Shown here piece after piece: positions 28,216-58,054 of a stretch of DNA of 64,000 nt. Source of the DNA: Escherichia coli. Lineage in GTDB: Bacteria; Pseudomonadota; Gammaproteobacteria; Enterobacterales; Enterobacteriaceae. The translations under genes and the position numbers were made by a program. The notes below the pieces were generated by a model. The model was given only the letters and a program-made list of their open reading frames with translations, searched no databases and was not told where the DNA came from. Location: assembly GCF_003019035.1 (NCBI RefSeq), contig NZ_CP027447.1. The stretch is one strand, 5' to 3'. Positions within the stretch are counted from its first letter, which is position 1. Every line of letters begins with the position of its first letter.

Positions 28216-29031
28216 TTATTGGTTAAATGGCGCTTCGTGTTTAAGCACTTTATCGATCACATCCAGTACGCCTTCACGGTTATTGGAGCCTGCCCGGTAT
28301 TTTGCCGCTGCGACGACCGCGTTGCCGGCATTTTCCATTGCAAAACTAAAGCCTGCCTGACGCAGCATCTCAATATCGTTACCGCCATCGCCAAAGACCA
28401 CCACTTCGCTGTCGTCTATTCCCCATAATTTCTGCAGTTGGCGAAGGCCATTGGCTTTATGTATGCCGGGGATAATCAGATCGATGCTGCCGTTGCCGGT
28501 GTGGACCGGCACCATAATATCGCCGATGGCCTCATGTAATGCTTTTTGTACTTGTGGAATCAGTTCATCGGAAAGATTCAGACCAAACTTAAAGAAGATA
28601 TCTTCTAAGTTGTCAAAGTTATCGACGTATTCCAGACGGTGATAATACATTTCCGCCACCGTTTTCATGGCATCGTCATATTTTTTGAGGGTATAGGCGC
28701 TATTTTTTCCGCAGGCAATAATTTCCACTTCCGGGCGCGTCAGCAAATGTTCCACGACAGTAGCAAACGCATCCTTCGACAGCTCGCCATTAAAAACATC
28801 TTTGCCTTCGCTCACTACCCAGCCGCCGTTTTCAGCCACAAAGGCTATTTCATTAGCAATTTCCGGAAAGAAAGAGATCAACTGATAATATTGATTCCCG
28901 CTGGCGACCACAAAGCGAATGCCTTGTGCTTTCATTTGCTGATACTGAGCCATAAACCGCTCACGGTTATAGGTTTTTTGATCGCTTAAGAAAGTACCAT
29001 CCATGTCTACCGCAATTAATTTAATGCTCAT
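28216..29031 (-). CDS. ybjI: HAD-superfamily phosphatase (Cof-like; paralog of ybiV)
   Basis: 271-aa ORF; DMDGT and GDGGND HAD motifs; clearly paralogous to the ybiV product in this window. Confidence 0.9.
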   Translation of the reverse strand: MSIKLIAVDMDGTFLSDQKTYNRERFMAQYQQMKAQGIRFVVASGNQYYQLISFFPEIANEIAFVAENGGWVVSEGKDVFNGELSKDAFATVVEHLLTRPEVEIIACGKNSAYTLKKYDDAMKTVAEMYYHRLEYVDNFDNLEDIFFKFGLNLSDELIPQVQKALHEAIGDIMVPVHTGNGSIDLIIPGIHKANGLRQLQKLWGIDDSEVVVFGDGGNDIEMLRQAGFSFAMENAGNAVVAAAKYRAGSNNREGVLDVIDKVLKHEAPFNQ

Positions 29032-30239
29032 CAACTATTCTCCATCGCCGTCTGCGTTTTGGTATCGGGTTTGGCGACGGCTTTCGCGACAATAGCCGCG
29101 AGAATAACCAGCGCCAGTACAACCAGCATTGCACTACGTAATCCATAATGTTCGCCGAGATAGCCCAGTAGCGGCGGCCCGACGAGGAAAGCCAGATAAC
29201 CGGTCGTTGCTACCACACTGACGCGGGTTGGTGCATCGGGGCCGGTATCGCTGGCGGCAGAAATGGTCAGCGGGAAGCCCAGCGAGGCACCTAGTCCCCA
29301 AAGTACAACAGACACTCCTGCGACCCAGGCGCTATCGACAAAAATAATCAGCCCAATACCCAACGCCCCCATTAGTGCACTGGCCCGAACCACGGCAACG
29401 CGACTGTAACGGTCGATGAACCAACCGCCGGTGAAGCGTCCAACGGTCATCCCCAGGGTAAAACCGGCATAAATCAGCGAGCCGGAAGTAGGACTAAAAC
29501 CGTGACCGTCAACCATTAATAAGGGTAACCAGTCGTTGGCAGAACCTTCGGCAAAGGCCATCGCCAGCACCACAACACCAATCAACAGCAACTGGATATC
29601 GCGATAAAAAGGTACGCCTTTTTCGCCATGCTGGGTGCCATCGGCAGCATTTTTGCCCGTACCGTCAGGGATTGCCTGAATGGCGATATAAATAGGTGCG
29701 ATGCCTACCAGCGCCGCCAATAAAATATGCACCGTTGCCGGAACGCCAAAGGCCGTCAGTGCCATCCCGACACCAGCGCCTGCCAGCGTGCCCAGGCTAT
29801 AAAAACCGTGCATCATCGGCAAAACCGTTTTATTCATTTCTCGCTCAACGGCGGCACCTTCAACGTTTATCGCCACTTCCGCAGAACCAAAACTTGCCCC
29901 AAAGACGCCGAGACCAACCGCGAAGAGCAGGGGCGATGTCAGCCAGAGTGCCAGACTTAGTATCATCATCCCGATCAATGCGCAGGACATCGTGACCAGG
30001 ATGACATTACGCGTCCCAAAGCGTTTCACTAACCACGCCGAGCAGAGAATACCGCTCATTGAACCGATCGACAGACCAAAGAGGACTCCACCCATTTCAG
30101 CGATCGAGACAGAAAGAATATCGCGGATAGCAGGCGTACGGGTTGCCCAGGACGCCATTAACAGGCCCGGCAAAAAGAAGAACATAAACAGCGCCCAGGT
30201 TCGGCGTTTCAATGCATTACGTGAAGAATTTACGGTCAT
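29031..30239 (-). CDS. ybjJ: MFS-family inner-membrane transporter
   Basis: 402-aa hydrophobic multi-TM ORF. Confidence 0.88.
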
Positions 30240-30322
30240 AGATCACGTCAAAATAAGAAGAGGGAAGACAACATTAGCAAGGTTGTGTACATTTGTACAC
30301 AATTGCAGAGAGAGGAAATGAC

Positions 30323-30859
30323 ATGCGTCGCGCTAACGATCCGCAACGGCGAGAAAAAATTATCCAGGCCACGCTGGAGGCGGTGAAACTTTATGGAATA
30401 CATGCTGTTACGCACCGCAAAATCGCTACCCTTGCCGGGGTACCGTTGGGGTCGATGACCTACTATTTTTCAGGAATTGATGAGTTGTTGCTGGAGGCGT
30501 TCAGCAGTTTTACTGAGATCATGTCCCGGCAATATCAGGCATTTTTTAGCGATGTTAGTGATGCTCAAGGCGCATGCCAGGCTATCACCGATATGATCTA
30601 CAGCTCACAGGTGGCAACGCCGGATAATATGGAGCTGATGTACCAGCTCTACGCGCTGGCTAGCCGAAAACCGCTATTAAAAACGGTAATGCAAAACTGG
30701 ATGCAGCGCAGTCAGCAAACGCTCGAACAATGGTTTGAACCCGGAACCGCCCGCGCGCTTGATGCGTTTATTGAGGGGATGACGCTGCATTTTGTCACCG
30801 ACCGTAAGCCGCTATCGCGCGAGGAGATTTTGAGGATGGTTGAGAGGGTTGCAGGGTAG
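30323..30859 (+). CDS. rcdA: TetR-family transcriptional regulator RcdA
   Basis: Start at [10 protein letters not shown] gives 178 aa; N-terminal TetR HTH. Confidence 0.9.
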
Positions 30860-30963
30860 TAGATAAATTTCAGGCAACAAAAAACCCACTTATCTAAATG
30901 GGTTAATAAAAACAATAAGTTAGATAAAAAACAATAACTTAATGTGGTGGTCAGTGGTGGTTA

Positions 30964-32016
30964 TTATGGGGTAATGCCAACCGCTGCCGCCACTTTGTCG
31001 CCATTTGGTAACGTTGCCAGTGGATTGAAACGGAGCGCCGTTTCCAAATGATCCAGTGCCAGATGTGCATAACGCATAGTCATTTTTATATCGTGGTGTC
31101 CGAGAATTTTTTGTAAGGCCAAGATGTTTCCACCCGACATCATGAAGTGCGCCGCAAACGTATGGCGCAGAACGTGTGTCAGTTGACCGCGAGGGAGAAC
31201 GATAGACGTTTTTTCCATCACGGATAAAAATTGAAAATAGCAGTCTGTGAAGAAATTGAACCCATCGAGCGCCATGATCTCTTCATAAAGCTCTTTACTG
31301 ATAGGGATGCTTCTGTTTTTCTTCCCCTTCGTTCTCACAAAGGTGATTCGGTACTTGGTGACCTGTGAGCGGGTAAGATTGATTGCTTCTCGCCAACGTG
31401 CGCCTGTACTTAGACATATTTTTACCACCAGTGCCAGAATTGGGTTCTGACGTTTGCAGTCAGACAGTAATTCGATGATCTGCTCATGTGTAAGCCATGC
31501 CATTTCCTTTTCTGCGATAGTGAATTTGCGCATCTTCTCTAATGGGTTTGGAAGTGTCCATTCACCCAGGCGGGAAAGTTCTCTGAAAACGCTGCTTAGA
31601 TGGCTTTGCTCCAGGTTAACAGTAACTGGGCTTGCTCCTTTCTTCCATTTTTCACTGAAGTAGATTTCACCAGTAAGGCGTTTATCGCGATAGTGAGCAA
31701 ACATTTTTGAGGTGAGATCGGTTGCAAGGGGATTTCCCAAGGCGTCAACCATCAACAGCAGCTTGTTGTAGACATGCTGTCCGGCAGTAAGAGATTTGCC
31801 ATGTAATTTGAACCATAGCTCAACCATATCTTTCAGTGTCCGACGATCCACTGATTCGCCCAGCCAGGGCTTTGCTTCTATTTCCCCCATGGTGTATCGC
31901 TCGAAGGCCAGTGCTTCGCCTTTGGTGGCGAATTGTTTACGCACACGACGCCCATTACGTCCGGCGGGGTAACATTCGCAAAGCCATTTCCCTGTGGTGA
32001 GTTTTCGTACTGCCAT
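30964..32016 (-). CDS. int: Phage tyrosine integrase (P2 Int-like)
   Basis: Start chosen at MAVRKLTTGKW; C-terminal catalytic region (HVLRHTFAAHFMMSGGNILALQKILGHHDIKMTMRYAHL) carries the tyrosine-recombinase R-H-R-Y signature. Confidence 0.88.
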   Translation of the reverse strand: MAVRKLTTGKWLCECYPAGRNGRRVRKQFATKGEALAFERYTMGEIEAKPWLGESVDRRTLKDMVELWFKLHGKSLTAGQHVYNKLLLMVDALGNPLATDLTSKMFAHYRDKRLTGEIYFSEKWKKGASPVTVNLEQSHLSSVFRELSRLGEWTLPNPLEKMRKFTIAEKEMAWLTHEQIIELLSDCKRQNPILALVVKICLSTGARWREAINLTRSQVTKYRITFVRTKGKKNRSIPISKELYEEIMALDGFNFFTDCYFQFLSVMEKTSIVLPRGQLTHVLRHTFAAHFMMSGGNILALQKILGHHDIKMTMRYAHLALDHLETALRFNPLATLPNGDKVAAAVGITP

Positions 32017-32204
32017 AAAAAATGCCCTCCAGTAGAGAGCATTTTCACTGTATGTATAACCAGTGTCAATGTATGAAATCCTACGACCATACATCTCACT
32101 GAAGCCATAATTAAGTTGGCTATTCTTTTTGCTATGTGAGCATGTAACTTTTGCGGTTAACCTGCGGCTCATTTTTATTTTAGGCGCAGATATAAAAGCA
32201 AAAG

Positions 32205-32396
32205 TTATCGTGAGTTTTTAGTACAGATTTTTTTGGATTTACTAATAGTTCCATCATTGCAAACGAATTTGCCATCTGAGGTACAGTGAGAAACACCTCC
32301 CTTTTTCCCTGAACAGGGATAATTTCTAGCATAGGTAGTTAGTGGGTTTAATAACAAAGAACATGAAAAAACCACAAAAAATACCTTACCAAGCAT
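32205..32396 (-). CDS. Small Cys-rich secreted protein of unknown function, between cI and int
   Basis: 63-aa ORF with strong RBS (GGGAGG); N-terminal signal peptide and four cysteines in the mature part; starts 16 bp after the cI stop on the same strand. Confidence 0.5.
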
Positions 32397-32411
32397 AGTT
32401 TCCTCCCGGTA

Positions 32412-32987
32412 CTATTTAACATACTTGACTGTTAAACTTATAATTTTACCAATTATTTCAATGTCTTCTATCTTGCATTCGAACGCTCTGTTTCCACCCT
32501 CGACGAAGATTCTTCCACCGGGTAAACGAGTAATGTCACGGATCGTTATTTCACCATCAATACTTATTACCCATTTACCATCACGTATATCATCAAATTC
32601 CTTATCACAAATAAATTCAGAATTATTATCTGTGATTACAAAAAGACTCTTGAATGCCGACGGTAGAAATCCCCTATCGAAAATATAAAAACCGTCTTCA
32701 CACAAGGCACCATCAGATAATACATATTTAGCAACTTCCATAGTATTTGTATTACCTGAAGTTTGCTTTGAACCATGTCCGGTTGTGAGCCAATTAAGCG
32801 AGGTGCCCGTTTCAAGGGCGCATTGGATTACCCATTCTGCTGGGAATGAGTCACGCATGTAGCGTGTGGCGAGTGTACTTTTAGAGATTCCTAAATGATC
32901 GCACAACGCCTGTCGAGTTTTGAATCCATAAGCTTCTACCATGCGCTCTATAGCGCCTCGTCCGCCTTTCTCCAAATTCATGGTCAC
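32412..32987 (-). CDS. cI: Prophage repressor CI (186 CI-like)
   Basis: 191-aa ORF; N-terminal HTH (LCDHLGISKSTLATRYMRD); divergent from apl/cII as in phage 186. Confidence 0.85.
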   Translation of the reverse strand: MTMNLEKGGRGAIERMVEAYGFKTRQALCDHLGISKSTLATRYMRDSFPAEWVIQCALETGTSLNWLTTGHGSKQTSGNTNTMEVAKYVLSDGALCEDGFYIFDRGFLPSAFKSLFVITDNNSEFICDKEFDDIRDGKWVISIDGEITIRDITRLPGGRIFVEGGNRAFECKIEDIEIIGKIISLTVKYVK

Positions 32988-33106
32988 TCCAAGTGAACTT
33001 TTATCTTGACGATTTCACTGTGCGATCGTATGTTTATGATGTTCACAAAATACAAACGATCCGTATTCGTCCTGATTAATCATCATTAAACGAGGAATGT
33101 TGCATC

Positions 33107-33328
33107 ATGAGACCTAACATTTCAATCACTCTTACCACGCCTCATGTGACTATTGAACGCTATAGCGAGCTGACAGGGCTGTCCATCGATACCATCAATG
33201 ACATGTTGGCTGACGGACGCCTTATCCGTCACCGTCTGCGCAAAGATAAAAAACGCGAAAAAGTGATGATCAACATAGCAGCCATGACCGTTGATGCGCT
33301 TTCAGAATGCAATCTAAACCTTAATTAG
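33107..33328 (+). CDS. apl: Apl/Cox-like excisionase and early regulator
   Basis: 73-aa ORF divergent from cI, first gene of the rightward early operon. Confidence 0.65.
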
Positions 33329-33360
33329 TTCGATTCTGAAATACATCAGAGGCATTGACC

Positions 33361-33870
33361 ATGTTTGATTACCAAGTTTCCAAACATCCACATTTTGATG
33401 AAGCCTGTCGTGCATTCGCACTGCGCCACAACCTGGTGCAACTGGCAGAACGTGCGGGCATGAATGTGCAGATTCTGCGGAACAAGCTGAACCCTGCTCA
33501 ACCTCATTTATTAACCGCACCAGAAATCTGGCTGCTTACCGATCTGACTGAAGATTCAACGTTGGTAGATGGTTTTCTGGCACAGATTCATTGTCTGCCA
33601 TGTGTACCGATTAATGAGGTGGCAAAAGAGAAACTGCCGCATTACGTCATGAGCGCAACTGCAGAGATCGGGCGTGTTGCAGCAGGTGCGGTATCTGGTG
33701 ATGTAAAAACCAGTGCCGGTCGTCGTGATGCTATCAGCAGCATTAACTCTGTAACACGACTGATGGCGCTGGCTGCTGTTTCATTGCAGGCCCGTTTACA
33801 GGCTAATCCTGCGATGGCGAGTGCAGTTGATACCGTGACTGGCCTCGGTGCTTCATTCGGTTTGCTGTGA
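33361..33870 (+). CDS. cII: CII-like lysogeny establishment activator (186 CII family)
   Basis: Start at [20 protein letters not shown] gives 169 aa; strongly resembles recalled 186 CII. Confidence 0.85.
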
Positions 33871-33877
33871 GGTGCTT

Positions 33878-34174
33878 ATGCTGACGAAAGAACCATCATT
33901 TGCATCGCTGCTGGTAAAACAAAGTCCGGCAATGCACTACGGTCACGGCTGGATCATGGGTGAGGATGGTAAACGCTGGCATCCGTGCCGTTCACAAGAT
34001 GAATTGCTGTCTGAATTGACCACGAGGAAACGGAGAAAGTCCAAATGTATGCGGCAGAAAATGAAGTGGTTTATCACTTTCGTTACAGAGGGGAGAATTA
34101 TTCAGTACCTGAAGATGATTTGCTCTGTTGCTATCCGTCGTTGTCGGGCGATGGTAGCTACTTTTTCACGCTAA
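33878..34174 (+). CDS. Fil-like early protein (possible host cell-division inhibitor); 3' extent uncertain
   Basis: ORF beginning MLTKEPSFASLLVKQSP at the position of 186 fil; its 3' part overlaps the next ORF in another frame. Confidence 0.4.
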   Translation: MLTKEPSFASLLVKQSPAMHYGHGWIMGEDGKRWHPCRSQDELLSELTTRKRRKSKCMRQKMKWFITFVTEGRIIQYLKMICSVAIRRCRAMVATFSR

Positions 34175-34269
34175 AGGATGGAACCTTTATACGTGGTGAA
34201 AAAGTACAAGAAGTGATGCGTATAAAGACATCACCTCTTGAACGTTATCGGCGAAATATTTATCGGTAA
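34045..34269 (+). CDS. Hypothetical early-region protein
   Basis: 74-aa ORF (MYAAENEVVYHFRYRGENYSVPEDDLL...); no motif recognised. Confidence 0.4.
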   Translation: MYAAENEVVYHFRYRGENYSVPEDDLLCCYPSLSGDGSYFFTLKDGTFIRGEKVQEVMRIKTSPLERYRRNIYR

Positions 34270-34508
34270 CGATCTATCAGTGTCTGTATCAGATGAGTGA
34301 ATTCTTGTTGTTTAACCGAACCTAAAGGAAGTTTGTTTAATTCTTCGCGGAGGAGCTCAAAAAATGCTGATTGATTTGCTGAGTCAGTTCGAAATAAGGA
34401 GTGGATCAGACCTGAAACAAGAATTCGTTGAACAGCAACCTCATCGCGAAGACTGGAGATCTCGTTTTCAAGTTGCTCTATACGCTCTCTTTCAACCGGG
34501 TTCAACAT
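34260..34508 (-). CDS. Hypothetical small protein, oriented against the early operon
   Basis: 82-aa ORF with an AGGA RBS 7 nt upstream of its ATG; charged, helical-looking sequence. Confidence 0.35.
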   Translation of the reverse strand: MLNPVERERIEQLENEISSLRDEVAVQRILVSGLIHSLFRTDSANQSAFFELLREELNKLPLGSVKQQEFTHLIQTLIDRYR

Positions 34509-34590
34509 TGATGATTCCTTCTAGCTATCAATATGTTGGTAATGGATCATATCAAAAATTTTTTAGTAGATGTGTTGTGGGGATGCATAA

Positions 34591-38877: not shown

Positions 38878-39066
38878 ATGCAGGACTATTTTTTGGAGTC
38901 TTTGAAGCTCCAGCGCATTGATTTTTTTCTTAAGCTTGTAGCGGCTAGTGAGTGTAGTGATGAAGAGAAGGGGCTGGCTCTGCAGTGGGTTTCTGAATTG
39001 ACTGATGAACTCATGGCAAAAATCAGAAGCCACGAATACAACCGCTCAATGGATGTCATCAGCTGA
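38878..39066 (+). CDS. SOS-regulated small protein (possible antirepressor, Tum-like by position)
   Basis: 62-aa ORF with strong RBS (AGGAGG); first gene downstream of the LexA box. Confidence 0.5.
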   Translation: MQDYFLESLKLQRIDFFLKLVAASECSDEEKGLALQWVSELTDELMAKIRSHEYNRSMDVIS

Positions 39067-39076
39067 GGTGACTTTT

Positions 39077-39310
39077 ATGCGCATTGAAATAATGATCGAT
39101 AAAGAGCAGAAGATTAGCCAGTCTACCCTGGACGCCCTTGAATCCGAGCTTTACCGCAATCTGCGCCCCCTGTATCCCAAAACGGTAATTCGCATTCGCA
39201 AAGGTAGCTCTAACGGTGTGGAACTAACCGGACTGCAACTGGATGAAGAAAGAAAACAAGTGATGAATATTATGCAGAAGGTGTGGGAGGACGACAGCTG
39301 GCTGCATTAA
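39077..39310 (+). CDS. DinI-family protein
   Basis: Start at MRIEIMIDKEQK (RBS GAGGTGA); 77 aa; resembles recalled DinI including the acidic C-terminus (WEDDSWLH). Confidence 0.75.
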   Translation: MRIEIMIDKEQKISQSTLDALESELYRNLRPLYPKTVIRIRKGSSNGVELTGLQLDEERKQVMNIMQKVWEDDSWLH

Positions 39311-39838: not shown

Positions 39839-40303
39839 GGAAACTCCTTTTATTGGTGTTTGCTATTTGAATAAAAATACGCCAAACAGAGTGTTAACTG
39901 TGAATATGGAAAGAATCGTTGTAAGTACCCCGCTTAGGTGTCCCATTCTATTTTAGAGGTTCTCGTGCATATGGATTATGTTATCTGAAAGTTAACTTCC
40001 GCTTCCCGTTCACAGCGAACATTCATCTTTGTAAACCCGTATGATCCGTTTTTCAAGTGGCCATTCAGATACGGATTTTCACTTCCTTGACAGTGCATGA
40101 CTATGCTGCATGAAATCGCATGATCGATTGAGGATCGTCTTTGCTCAGATCCGCCAGAACTGGCGGGCTTTTGCTCATGTCATGCATGTGCATGAAAACC
40201 ACTGCATAAAGCGGGCAGGCGTGGCGGGGATACGAGCGCGCGCTTATTACTTTGATAGTACTCGGGTTATAATATGGATGACTATCTATCTCGGAGAATG
40301 TGC

Positions 40304-41956
40304 ATGTCATTGGACTATATTAAAGAACAGTTGTCAGACTTTATTTCATCTGCAGAACCTGAGGTAATGGCTATTCAGGGTGAATGGGGGATTGGGAAAA
40401 CCTATACTTGGAATACTTTCTTAAAGGAAAATAAAAATAAGATTGCATTTAATAGATATAGTTACGTCTCTCTTTTTGGTGTTAATTCATTGGACGCATT
40501 AAAATATTCCATCTTTGAAAATACAATTACAAAAGATTTTATTGGAAATAAACCTAATTTAAAAACAGCAACACAAAATACAAAGGGACTTCTTGAATCC
40601 TGCACTAGAAAGACCGCTCGTTTGTTAAAAGAAACACCTGTTGTGAAAAATTTCGCTACGACACTTGAGTCAATGTCATTTATGTCAATTACTAATGTTA
40701 TTGTAGTCATAGATGACTTAGAAAGACGTGGTAAAAATTTAGAAGTGAAAGATGTCTTAGGGTTGGTTTCTTTATTGAAAGAACAAAAAAATTGTAAGGT
40801 GGTTCTTTTACTTAATAATGGGACAAGTGGTATGGATGATTACTCCACTTATAAAGAAAAGGTTATTGATAGAGAGATTACCTATAACCCTACGCCAGAA
40901 GAATGTGCAGCTATAGCATATAAAAATAATTCTGATGTTCATAAATTATTAAGCAAATACTCCATTTCTCTGGGTATTAAAAATATTCGGATACTGAAAA
41001 AAATAGAGCGGTTTTTGCTAGCCTTGTTACCTGCTATTAACGTTAATTTTGATAAAATTGCAAATGAAGTCGCACGCTCCTTAACTTTGTATTGTTGGAG
41101 TCATTACGCATTTACTCCAGATGGAGATGTACCATCATTGGAATATATTAGAAATATGAGAAATATCTATATGCGTGATGAAAAAGAGGATGGAAAAGGA
41201 AAAAAATGGCTTAATACTTTGCTTATATATGGTTATAAAAAAACAAACGAACTTGATGAAGTCCTTATAGACATGGTTAAGCATGGATATATTGATATGA
41301 ACAATTTTCAAAGGCAAGTAAGTCTAAGAAATGATGAACTTATCCGTGATAGTAAGCGAGGTTCACTGTTTGAAGCATGGAAGCTTTTCTATAATTCATT
41401 TGAAGATAACCGAAATCAGGTTGTTGATAATCTATATCAAGCGGTGGTTGGTGGGATAGAGTATGTAACTCCAAGTGACTTGGATAGTGTTGTCGGACTG
41501 TATAGAGATTTAGATGAAAATATTAAAGCAAGTGAATTAATAAGTAAATTTATTAATTACGGCAATGATGCTCTTAAGGAATATGTCCAATCTATTTACA
41601 TGAATGTTCATCCTATAAAAGATGCTGAGTTAAAGTCAAAAATCCAAGATTATTCTATTACTTTAAATCTGGATGGTTCTATAAAGGATGTTCTAATAAA
41701 ATTATCAAGTCAGAATGGTTGGTCTGATAGGCACGAGGAAATATTGGATGCTGCCTCAGAGGATGACTACTATGATTTATTTAAAAAAGTCATTCTTGAA
41801 GGTGGTGATTCAATAATAGCCACTGCTCTTAAGTTTGGTGGGTATAGCAATGGTTCAGATAGAATGAAACGCATCGGAGAAAAAGCGAGAAATGCTTTGA
41901 TAAGAATTGGAAATGAGTCGAAGATTAATAAAATACGTGTTAGACGGTATTTGTAA
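40304..41956 (+). CDS. KAP-family P-loop NTPase (alternative start at 40274)
   Basis: Walker A of KAP type (GEWGIGKTY) and Walker B (VIVVIDDLERRG); AT-rich codon usage unlike the flanking phage genes; lies at the P2 old/tin position between A and Q. Confidence 0.75.
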   Translation: MSLDYIKEQLSDFISSAEPEVMAIQGEWGIGKTYTWNTFLKENKNKIAFNRYSYVSLFGVNSLDALKYSIFENTITKDFIGNKPNLKTATQNTKGLLESCTRKTARLLKETPVVKNFATTLESMSFMSITNVIVVIDDLERRGKNLEVKDVLGLVSLLKEQKNCKVVLLLNNGTSGMDDYSTYKEKVIDREITYNPTPEECAAIAYKNNSDVHKLLSKYSISLGIKNIRILKKIERFLLALLPAINVNFDKIANEVARSLTLYCWSHYAFTPDGDVPSLEYIRNMRNIYMRDEKEDGKGKKWLNTLLIYGYKKTNELDEVLIDMVKHGYIDMNNFQRQVSLRNDELIRDSKRGSLFEAWKLFYNSFEDNRNQVVDNLYQAVVGGIEYVTPSDLDSVVGLYRDLDENIKASELISKFINYGNDALKEYVQSIYMNVHPIKDAELKSKIQDYSITLNLDGSIKDVLIKLSSQNGWSDRHEEILDAASEDDYYDLFKKVILEGGDSIIATALKFGGYSNGSDRMKRIGEKARNALIRIGNESKINKIRVRRYL

Positions 41957-57016: not shown

Positions 57017-58054
57017 TTATATTTGCCTACCTCCTAATAAAATGTGTGAGGTGTATTTGTTGGTTTTCAATAACCTTGCTACAATTATACAGGTGGTTAC
57101 AATAAGGAAAACAAATGAAGGGGTTATGATGAGGTTATATATGAGTGGATTTTCGCATAGGTTATTAATGTTCACGTATGCCTCTATTCTGTGAAAAATA
57201 AACGACGAGATTATATAGATGGGAAAGGTGTAAGTACCGACAAAGGATGTGGCTCGTATAAATAAATTATTTTTCGTTGATAAAAATGTATAAGCATATA
57301 TAAGCGATATGCTTCCGGCGAAGCCAATGAAGTAGCGAAATATAATAATGAATGATTGATGCCAGAAATCAACATTCTCATATGTCATTTTAGATATGTA
57401 AATATAATACTCTCTATTCCATAGGAGAAGCATACCAATCCATGTTAATACGGCTAACACACCAATTTTGTGCCTATTTCTAGAGGCAAAATCTAAAATG
57501 CGATGGGCGGATATACCAGCGATAAAATAAGGGGCCATAAATTTAATTTTGTCCATATTCCAATCATCTCCATATGCAAGGGATATACTAAATATCAGTA
57601 AATAAAGCACCACAGAATATTGTTTGCTTATTGAGTGACAAATAGTATAAACAATAGATACTGCAAAGAGTGCAGAAAGGAACCAGAAGGCGTAGATGGC
57701 TCCATATCTAATATTTATTAAATTTATATCTCTTCCCACAAAAATGGATTCAGCAATGAACCATGCAATGGATGGGATTATTAACTGCATGAATTTTCTT
57801 TTGATAATTGATGATGGTTTTCTCTTGAGAGAAAAATAGAAAAGATAGCCGCTAAGCAGCATAAAAAATGGCATGTGGAAGCTGTAAATGGTAATAAATA
57901 ATGGGTTGTCAAAAAAATTGAAACTATCTTTTTTTACAAACTGAATTGAATGGCCCCACACGACAAAAATTATAGCTAATCCTTTCATTGAGTCTATAAT
58001 GGAATTTCGAGTGCTGGGTGTCTCTGTTATAATAAGATGTGGTTCGTTTTTCAT
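57017..58054 (-). CDS. Membrane acyltransferase (acyltransferase-3 family; candidate LPS O-acetyltransferase)
   Basis: 345-aa polytopic ORF; N-terminal RNSIIDSMKGLAIIFVVWGHS typical of OafA/Oac-type acyltransferases; AT-rich; at the P2 Z/fun position. Confidence 0.75.
   Translation of the reverse strand: MKNEPHLIITETPSTRNSIIDSMKGLAIIFVVWGHSIQFVKKDSFNFFDNPLFITIYSFHMPFFMLLSGYLFYFSLKRKPSSIIKRKFMQLIIPSIAWFIAESIFVGRDINLINIRYGAIYAFWFLSALFAVSIVYTICHSISKQYSVVLYLLIFSISLAYGDDWNMDKIKFMAPYFIAGISAHRILDFASRNRHKIGVLAVLTWIGMLLLWNREYYIYISKMTYENVDFWHQSFIIIFRYFIGFAGSISLIYAYTFLSTKNNLFIRATSFVGTYTFPIYIISSFIFHRIEAYVNINNLCENPLIYNLIITPSFVFLIVTTCIIVARLLKTNKYTSHILLGGRQI

Follow-up and report, generated by a model that had tools for sequence, protein, structure and literature searches.

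Positions 30863-31004 of the window, by which we mean the whole 64,000-nucleotide stretch of Escherichia coli DNA analysed here (contig NZ_CP027447.1), very probably form the attL of a 186-type P2-like (Peduoviridae) prophage that was integrated by its integrase (Int) in the intergenic terminator region that separates rcdA from ybjL. The attL is an ordinary one, at a site that had been described before. The refinements offered here are the exact core, a 14-bp segment for strand exchange, an attL that reaches into int and an apparent mimicry of the terminator, and they are of use for annotation rather than new biology. An exact junction gives clean limits for the prophage (left end 30890, core 30863-30889), makes it possible to design PCR tests of excision and of the empty site, and leads to a correct reading of the 3' ends of rcdA and ybjL in lysogens. 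The site is a high-traffic spot for integration, and appears to be a clear case of terminator targeting, in which the phage brings with it a replacement for the intrinsic terminator that it enters; the principle is well known for tRNA-gene targets. The features of the region are compiled in Table 1.

Table 1. Features of the left attachment site and adjoining genes in the window
Feature	Position	Strand	Details
rcdA (ybjK)	30323-30859	+	last chromosomal gene before the junction; ORF and RefSeq annotation at homologous loci
27-bp att core	30863-30889	.	ATAAATTTCAGGCAACAAAAAACCCAC; common to attB, attP, attL and attR
Candidate core-type Int dyad	30869-30898	.	TTCAGGCAA 30869-30877; 12-bp spacer CAAAAAACCCAC 30878-30889; TTATCTAAA 30890-30898
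Terminator-like hairpin (30883-30904) with T-run	30873-30904	-	downstream of int; AACCCATTTAGATAAGTGGGTT then TTTTGTTGCC; 9 pairs (consensus scan)
Predicted strand-exchange segment	30876-30889	.	AACAAAAAACCCAC; last 14 bp of the core; the sole part identical in every attB/attP pairing seen
Two direct repeats	30910-30941	+	AAACAATAAGTTA 30910-30922; AAACAATAACTTA 30929-30941; each one mismatch from the IHF consensus WATCAANNNNTTR
Tandem repeat, two copies, 10-bp period	30944-30961	+	GTGGTGGT; resembles the inverted form of the arm-type motif
int, tyrosine recombinase of the 186/HP1 branch, 350 aa	30964-32016	-	Pfam Int_N PF24624 (4e-31), Phage_integrase PF00589 (1e-20)
P' arm-type doublet	30986-31004	+	GCCGCCAC 30986-30993; GTCGCCAT 30997-31004; inside the last codons of int
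cI	32412-32987	-	Pfam Phage_CI_repr and Phage_CI_C
73-aa gene in the Apl/Cox position	33107-33328	+	without a Pfam match; role from gene order
cII	33355-33870		follows the 73-aa gene; Phage_CP76, PF06892

The chromosomal junction and the att core

On the chromosomal side the window carries ybjI and ybjJ, both on the minus strand, ahead of rcdA. When the segment 30300-31300 was searched against 5,426 complete E. coli genomes, 5,422 were matched, and in approximately 4,300 prophage-free genomes the match stopped at query position 589/590, which corresponds to 30888/30889 of the window and lies 29-30 bp beyond the stop codon of rcdA. The breakpoint between chromosome and prophage lies at 30889/30890, with 30890 as the left end of the prophage. 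The original prediction, which let the conserved chromosomal sequence end at the rcdA stop (30859), was therefore off by 30 bp. Its central proposal, that the interval 30860-30963 holds the att core of a P2/186-like prophage, is borne out, as the breakpoint falls inside this interval and the core is repeated in relatives and contiguous in attP. The comparison with prophage-free genomes that it had suggested gave a homology that neither passes 30964 nor stops well before 30860. The interval was nevertheless drawn too short, in that the functional attL passes 30963 and continues into the coding sequence of int, to about 31004.

The same genomes give a measure of how heavily the site is used. The match runs on through int, so that this int adjoins rcdA, in 1,062 of the 5,422 genomes, an uninterrupted attB is present in 4,227 and an attR junction in 1,106; the rcdA-ybjL site is occupied in about 20-22% of the 5,422 complete genomes. 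An example of an empty site is that of the O157 strain SS52, which reads gtagATAAATTTCAGGCAACAAAAAACCCAT up to the breakpoint and caaccttgaaccgaaatggcggggttgatggg after it, while at the same junction the window reads ...CCCAC followed by ttatctaaatgggtt.

These alignments also decide on a quite different reading, in which the boundary would be the stop codon of int and the whole of 30860-30963 would be chromosomal, as the 3' UTR and terminator of rcdA with the hairpin as rcdA's own terminator. The hairpin does stand just 24 nt downstream of the rcdA stop. However, the prophage-free homology ends at 30888/30889, the segment 30890-30963 is found between ogr and int in the attP of free phages, and on the plus strand the hairpin contains a C.A mismatch and is not followed by a T-run. 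The reading is refuted by the empty-site and attP alignments and retains a probability close to nil. The sequence belongs instead to an attachment site, in which the hairpin aacccacttatctaaatgggtt is present at 30883-30904, as had been predicted; it is not the core, as it straddles the boundary between the core and the P' arm, and only its left arm is core sequence.

Six lysogens (E300010, CFT073, GN02461, ET350, A29 and M7424) have the 27-bp core at each end of the prophage, directly repeated. The occupant of E300010 is a degraded relative that has kept both of its ends and has an int region 99.5% identical to that of the window; here attL reads gtagATAAATTTTAGGCAACAAAAAACCCACttatc and attR reads aaggcATAAATTTTAGGCAACAAAAAACCCACcaacc, which share the 27-bp direct repeat. 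An intact attP, in which the core joins the two arms without interruption between ogr and int, is present in the Klebsiella phage KP12 and in the IMG/VR record L021 (a 39.9-kb contig). Empty E. coli sites match the core perfectly, including the C allele at its last position, and the perfect C-type empty site occurs in at least 40 genomes. Position 27 of the core is either C or T, in phages and in empty sites alike. Since C is found at this position in both attL and attR of all five C-type lysogens examined, position 27 is uninformative on the right limit of the exchange. A C-type phage in a T-type attB was also sought by means of a P-arm marker (AAAAGGC with CCCAT-caacc). The corresponding attR proved to be common and the marker to be unlinked to the C-type phage, strain S56 for example carrying an AAAAGGC-marked attR yet a 92.7% int type, so that this test is likewise uninformative on the right limit.

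The core repeat is seen in relatives, and the attR of the window prophage lies outside the window, as the original prediction had it. A search for a second copy of the junction within the window by blastn-short gave chance matches of at most 15 nt only. In nucleotide alignments the window end falls inside a 3,078-nt tape-measure gene of GN02461, CFT073 and M7424, and the distance from the window end to the attR core in these collinear prophages, as worked out in GN02461 and CFT073, is 2,073 bp. The attR of the window prophage is thus to be expected some 2.07 kb past the last position of the window, where the expected order would be ogr, GCTGCCGCCAyTTTGTCGCCAT, some 40 bp, then ATAAATTT(C/T)AGGCAACAAAAAACCCA(C/T)CAACCTTGAACC... 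and ybjL.

Strand exchange, arms and integrase

The left half of the core is polymorphic in hosts, empty sites reading ATAAATTTCAGGCAAC or, very commonly, ATAAGTTTTAGATAAC, and this polymorphism allows the exchange to be located. GATAAC is a common allele of the empty attB. In GN02461 the attL is of the host type (...TTTTAGATAAC...) and the attR of the phage type (...TTTCAGGCAAC...), and among the IMG/VR attL sequences with GATAAC, all eight whose left flank can be read continue into rcdA DNA. Attachments in Klebsiella and in other hosts diverge from the phage to the left of GCAAC or CAGGCAAC. Core positions 1-13 are host-derived in attL and phage-derived in attR, and we therefore infer that both strand exchanges fall within AACAAAAAACCCA(C/T), that is, within 30876-30889.

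Around this segment we hypothesise a pair of core-type Int binding sites, arranged as a dyad across a 12-bp spacer. The two halves match at 6 of 9 positions in the window, a level that 1.3% of window positions reach at the same geometry, and at 8-9 of 9 when attL carries the common host allele TTTAGATAA, for which the chance is 2.5e-4. Read as its reverse complement, the commonest host attB allele TTTAGATAA is in fact identical to the phage P' sequence TTATCTAAA on the other side of the 12-bp spacer, and the perfect 9-bp dyad exists only in the attL of hosts with TTTAGATAA. The attB varies within E. coli, with C or T at the last core position and at least three alleles of the left half, and the C allele may be either a mark of lineage or a trace left by phage excision. 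It is conceivable, if distinctly improbable, that the phage shapes these host alleles (C/T at position 27; TTTAGATAA versus TTCAGGCAA), in which case the C allele could be the footprint of a past integration and excision by a C-type phage and the TTTAGATAA dyad could bias directionality or the stability of the lysogen.

To compare the arms, eight attP sequences, native or reconstructed, were aligned with the window. In the P arm the near-invariant GCTGCCGCCAyTTTGTCGCCAT stands directly after the stop codon of ogr and is followed by an IHF-like palindrome. The phage-derived P' arm starts at 30890 and reaches into the 3' part of int. The two direct repeats of the P' arm share the form AAACAATAA(G/C)TTA and are conserved in E. 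coli and Klebsiella phages. A 250-bp reconstructed attP contains four IHF-like sites against 0.29 expected from their density in the window, and by analogy with related systems the repeats at 30910-30941 are putative IHF sites. As candidate Apl operators the AAACAATAAGTTA repeats were rejected; they share one 8-mer with the cI-apl switch region, which is uninformative, and the IHF consensus fits them better. The tandem of GTGGTGGT is kept in all aligned attP and attL sequences, with one substitution in phage 4LV2017.

In all relatives the P arm also has the GCCGCCAC/GTCGCCAT doublet, after the stop codon of ogr, so that arm repeats stand on both sides of the core. The arm consensus published for the 186 type, tgccGCCActt (PMC3448106), is matched by GCCGCCAC. 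In the CFT073 phage homology is kept to about 31005 and divergence sets in directly after the doublet, which is why the functional right limit of attL is put at about 31004. In CFT073 (1440-1900 of its locus, equivalent to window 30950-31005) a different integrase is present, separated from attL by an additional ORF of 89 aa; of the window-type int this prophage keeps the final ~40 bp, arm-type repeats included. This suggests that the CFT073 int was replaced under a need to preserve the P' arm.

The integrase gene itself, on the minus strand, ends where it had been predicted to end; its stop codon occupies 30964-30966. Its start is probably at 32016 (MAVRKLTTGKW..., 350 aa), since near-identical genes are annotated at 1,053-1,056 nt, and the mechanically called ORF of 402 aa is accordingly over-extended. 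The protein is approximately 55% identical to 186-like integrases, 49% to that of HP1 and 36-38% to those of P2 and WPhi, and tblastn gave matches to integrases of Peduoviridae. Beyond it the int-cI and apl-cII layout is the 186-type arrangement of a P2-like phage, within which the 73-aa gene is presumed to encode the excision directionality factor. Between int and cI lies a 63-aa ORF (32205-32396) that has no Pfam match and is named 'YdcA family protein' in relatives.

By analogy with 186, P2 and HP1, Int, which has an N-terminal arm-binding domain and a catalytic domain, would bind the GCCGCCAC/GTCGCCAT repeats in both arms and the core-type sites that flank the 12-bp spacer. IHF would bend the arms at the WATCAANNNNTTR-like sites, as in comparable systems, and strand exchange would take place inside AACAAAAAACCCAC, with cleavage positions assigned on the same analogy. 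Excision would require the Apl-like protein, as for phage 186.

Whether this machinery is still in place bears on a further possibility, namely that the element is a fixed defective remnant and its attL a fossil that no longer works. Some occupants of the site have certainly decayed: that of E300010 contains IS100, lacks tail genes and has truncated genes for methylase, replication and lysozyme, and that of strain A29 has several frameshifts; the attR of the window prophage also lies outside the window. In the window, however, int is full length, the arm, IHF-like and core elements are intact, being identical to those of other lysogens and near-identical to those of phage records, and the prophage runs collinear with complete relatives as far as the window reaches. 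We consider a fossil unlikely.

The terminator target and its replacement

The empty attB folds as a hairpin of 12 pairs (-23.7 kcal/mol, z -2.9) followed by T6 on the minus strand, and it is situated about 110 bp downstream of the ybjL stop codon. The hairpin and its T-run fit an intrinsic terminator of ybjL. The phage core corresponds to the T-run together with the last bases of the descending stem of this hairpin, and the target of integration would thus be the T-run and the stem base of the ybjL terminator, on the minus strand. As these parts are present in the phage core as well, the ybjL terminator would be rebuilt at attR. In the attR version with the phage C allele one pair becomes G.U, and the fold still reaches -22.7 kcal/mol.

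Genes for stable RNAs are the targets of some related phages, 186 using a tRNA-Ile gene, HP1 a tRNA-Leu gene and Fels-2 ssrA. A target of this class, that is, a tRNA, tmRNA or small-RNA gene whose 3' end is duplicated by the core, would agree with the tendency of 186-type integrases to use tRNA genes (PMC3448106). Against it, the hairpin and T-run downstream of ybjL fit an intrinsic terminator, ARAGORN found no tRNA or tmRNA gene in 29000-33000, and Rfam gave no match at E<=1 in 30200-31400. Such a target is very improbable, and the ybjL terminator is retained as the likely site of attack.

At attL the T-run is joined to a hairpin that is carried by the phage, at 30883-30904, and transcription of int would end there before running antisense into rcdA. 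Three of the nine pairs of this hairpin are G-C. The plus strand folds at -6.0 kcal/mol (z -1.2) and the minus strand at -9.9 kcal/mol (z -1.6), and neither energy is significant against shuffled sequences. There are three phage variants of this hairpin. Two of them pair imperfectly on the plus strand and keep the pairing as G.U on the minus strand; being only two substitutions, these mildly favour a role of the hairpin as RNA on the int strand. From its sequence and position it looks like a terminator of int.

Cargo and comparison with known systems

Several further genes were noted in the remainder of the prophage. At 50394-52494 (minus strand), between a virion-morphogenesis gene and baseplate gene V, there is a two-gene PARIS-like defence pair made up of a DUF4435/AriB protein of 285 aa (PADLOC AriB, 2e-21) and an AAA_15/AriA ATPase of 418 aa (AriA, 2e-38). 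Relatives have other cargo at this spot, namely a TIR protein in GN02461, a DUF6216 protein in ET350, and AAA and HNH proteins in M7424. A 560-aa KAP-family P-loop NTPase (40274-41956, plus strand; Pfam 2.7e-9), which also matches the PADLOC candidate PDC-S49 (3.7e-25), is encoded in a variable region between a DinI-like gene (39005-39310) and the portal gene. An Acyl_transf_3 acyltransferase of 345 aa is encoded at 57017-58054 (minus strand) between the tail-fibre assembly and tail sheath genes and may modify a surface polysaccharide; the CFT073 prophage has an acyltransferase at the same position. A segment of about 580 bp after cII (34009-34589) is absent from the close relative GN02461. 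A window-type int or an attR-type junction is also found in three plasmid-labelled records of 45-55 kb (NZ_CP148585.1, NZ_CP148400.1 and NZ_CP019246.1), which could be excised or misassembled prophage DNA.

The chromosomal position between rcdA and ybjL is common to the window prophage and several described elements. PhiECO1 (strain HS), PhiECO2 (ATCC 8739) and PhiECO3 (CFT073, 908870-942351) share one integration site (Nilsson & Haggard-Ljungquist 2011, PMC3448106), and the coordinates of PhiECO3 fall between rcdA, which ends at 908853, and ybjL, which starts at 942509. Prophage NC-MV of E. coli NC101 likewise sits between ybjL and rcdA (2026, PMC12803456), and the att pairs of 2,175 P2/P4 elements in E. 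coli have been catalogued (2026 preprint). The CFT073 prophage has the 27-bp core, the P and P' arm sequences and the 186-type cI/cII switch of the window. The two differ in that the window phage has C as its allele of core position 27 and a hairpin of the ttatctaaaT variant, whereas the CFT073 phage has another int, displaced by the extra ORF, beside the remnant of a window-type int with its arm sites.

Outside E. coli, a close counterpart is the Klebsiella phage 4LV2017 (Elveevirus), whose Int is approximately 94% identical in protein sequence to that of the window. The attP arms of 4LV2017, KP12 and the Kp48xx phages are as in the window, and their target is the same hairpin terminator in Klebsiella. 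For 4LV2017 the annotated attL and attR, CAGGCAACAAAAAACCCAT, are 19-20 bp long, and the identity with the Klebsiella host likewise amounts to only 19-20 bp because the left flank of the host differs.

Coliphage 186 shares with the window the int-cI and apl-cII order, the arm consensus tgccGCCActt and an Int with N-terminal and catalytic domains; it differs in the sequence of Int, which is approximately 55% identical, and in its target, which is a tRNA-Ile gene (PMC3448106), whereas the window phage uses an intergenic terminator. P2 stands further away, with an Int that is 36-38% identical and a different arm motif, tgTGGaCa (PMC3448106). The window phage has a cI switch and an Apl-position gene. 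The switch of P2 is formed by C and Cox, not by cI and Apl. Yu, Bertani and Haggard-Ljungquist reportedly described, in 1989, an attP/locI of P2 with a 27-bp core, and P2 resembles the window phage in its intergenic target, in a core of approximately 27 bp and in tolerating imperfect identity in part of that core.
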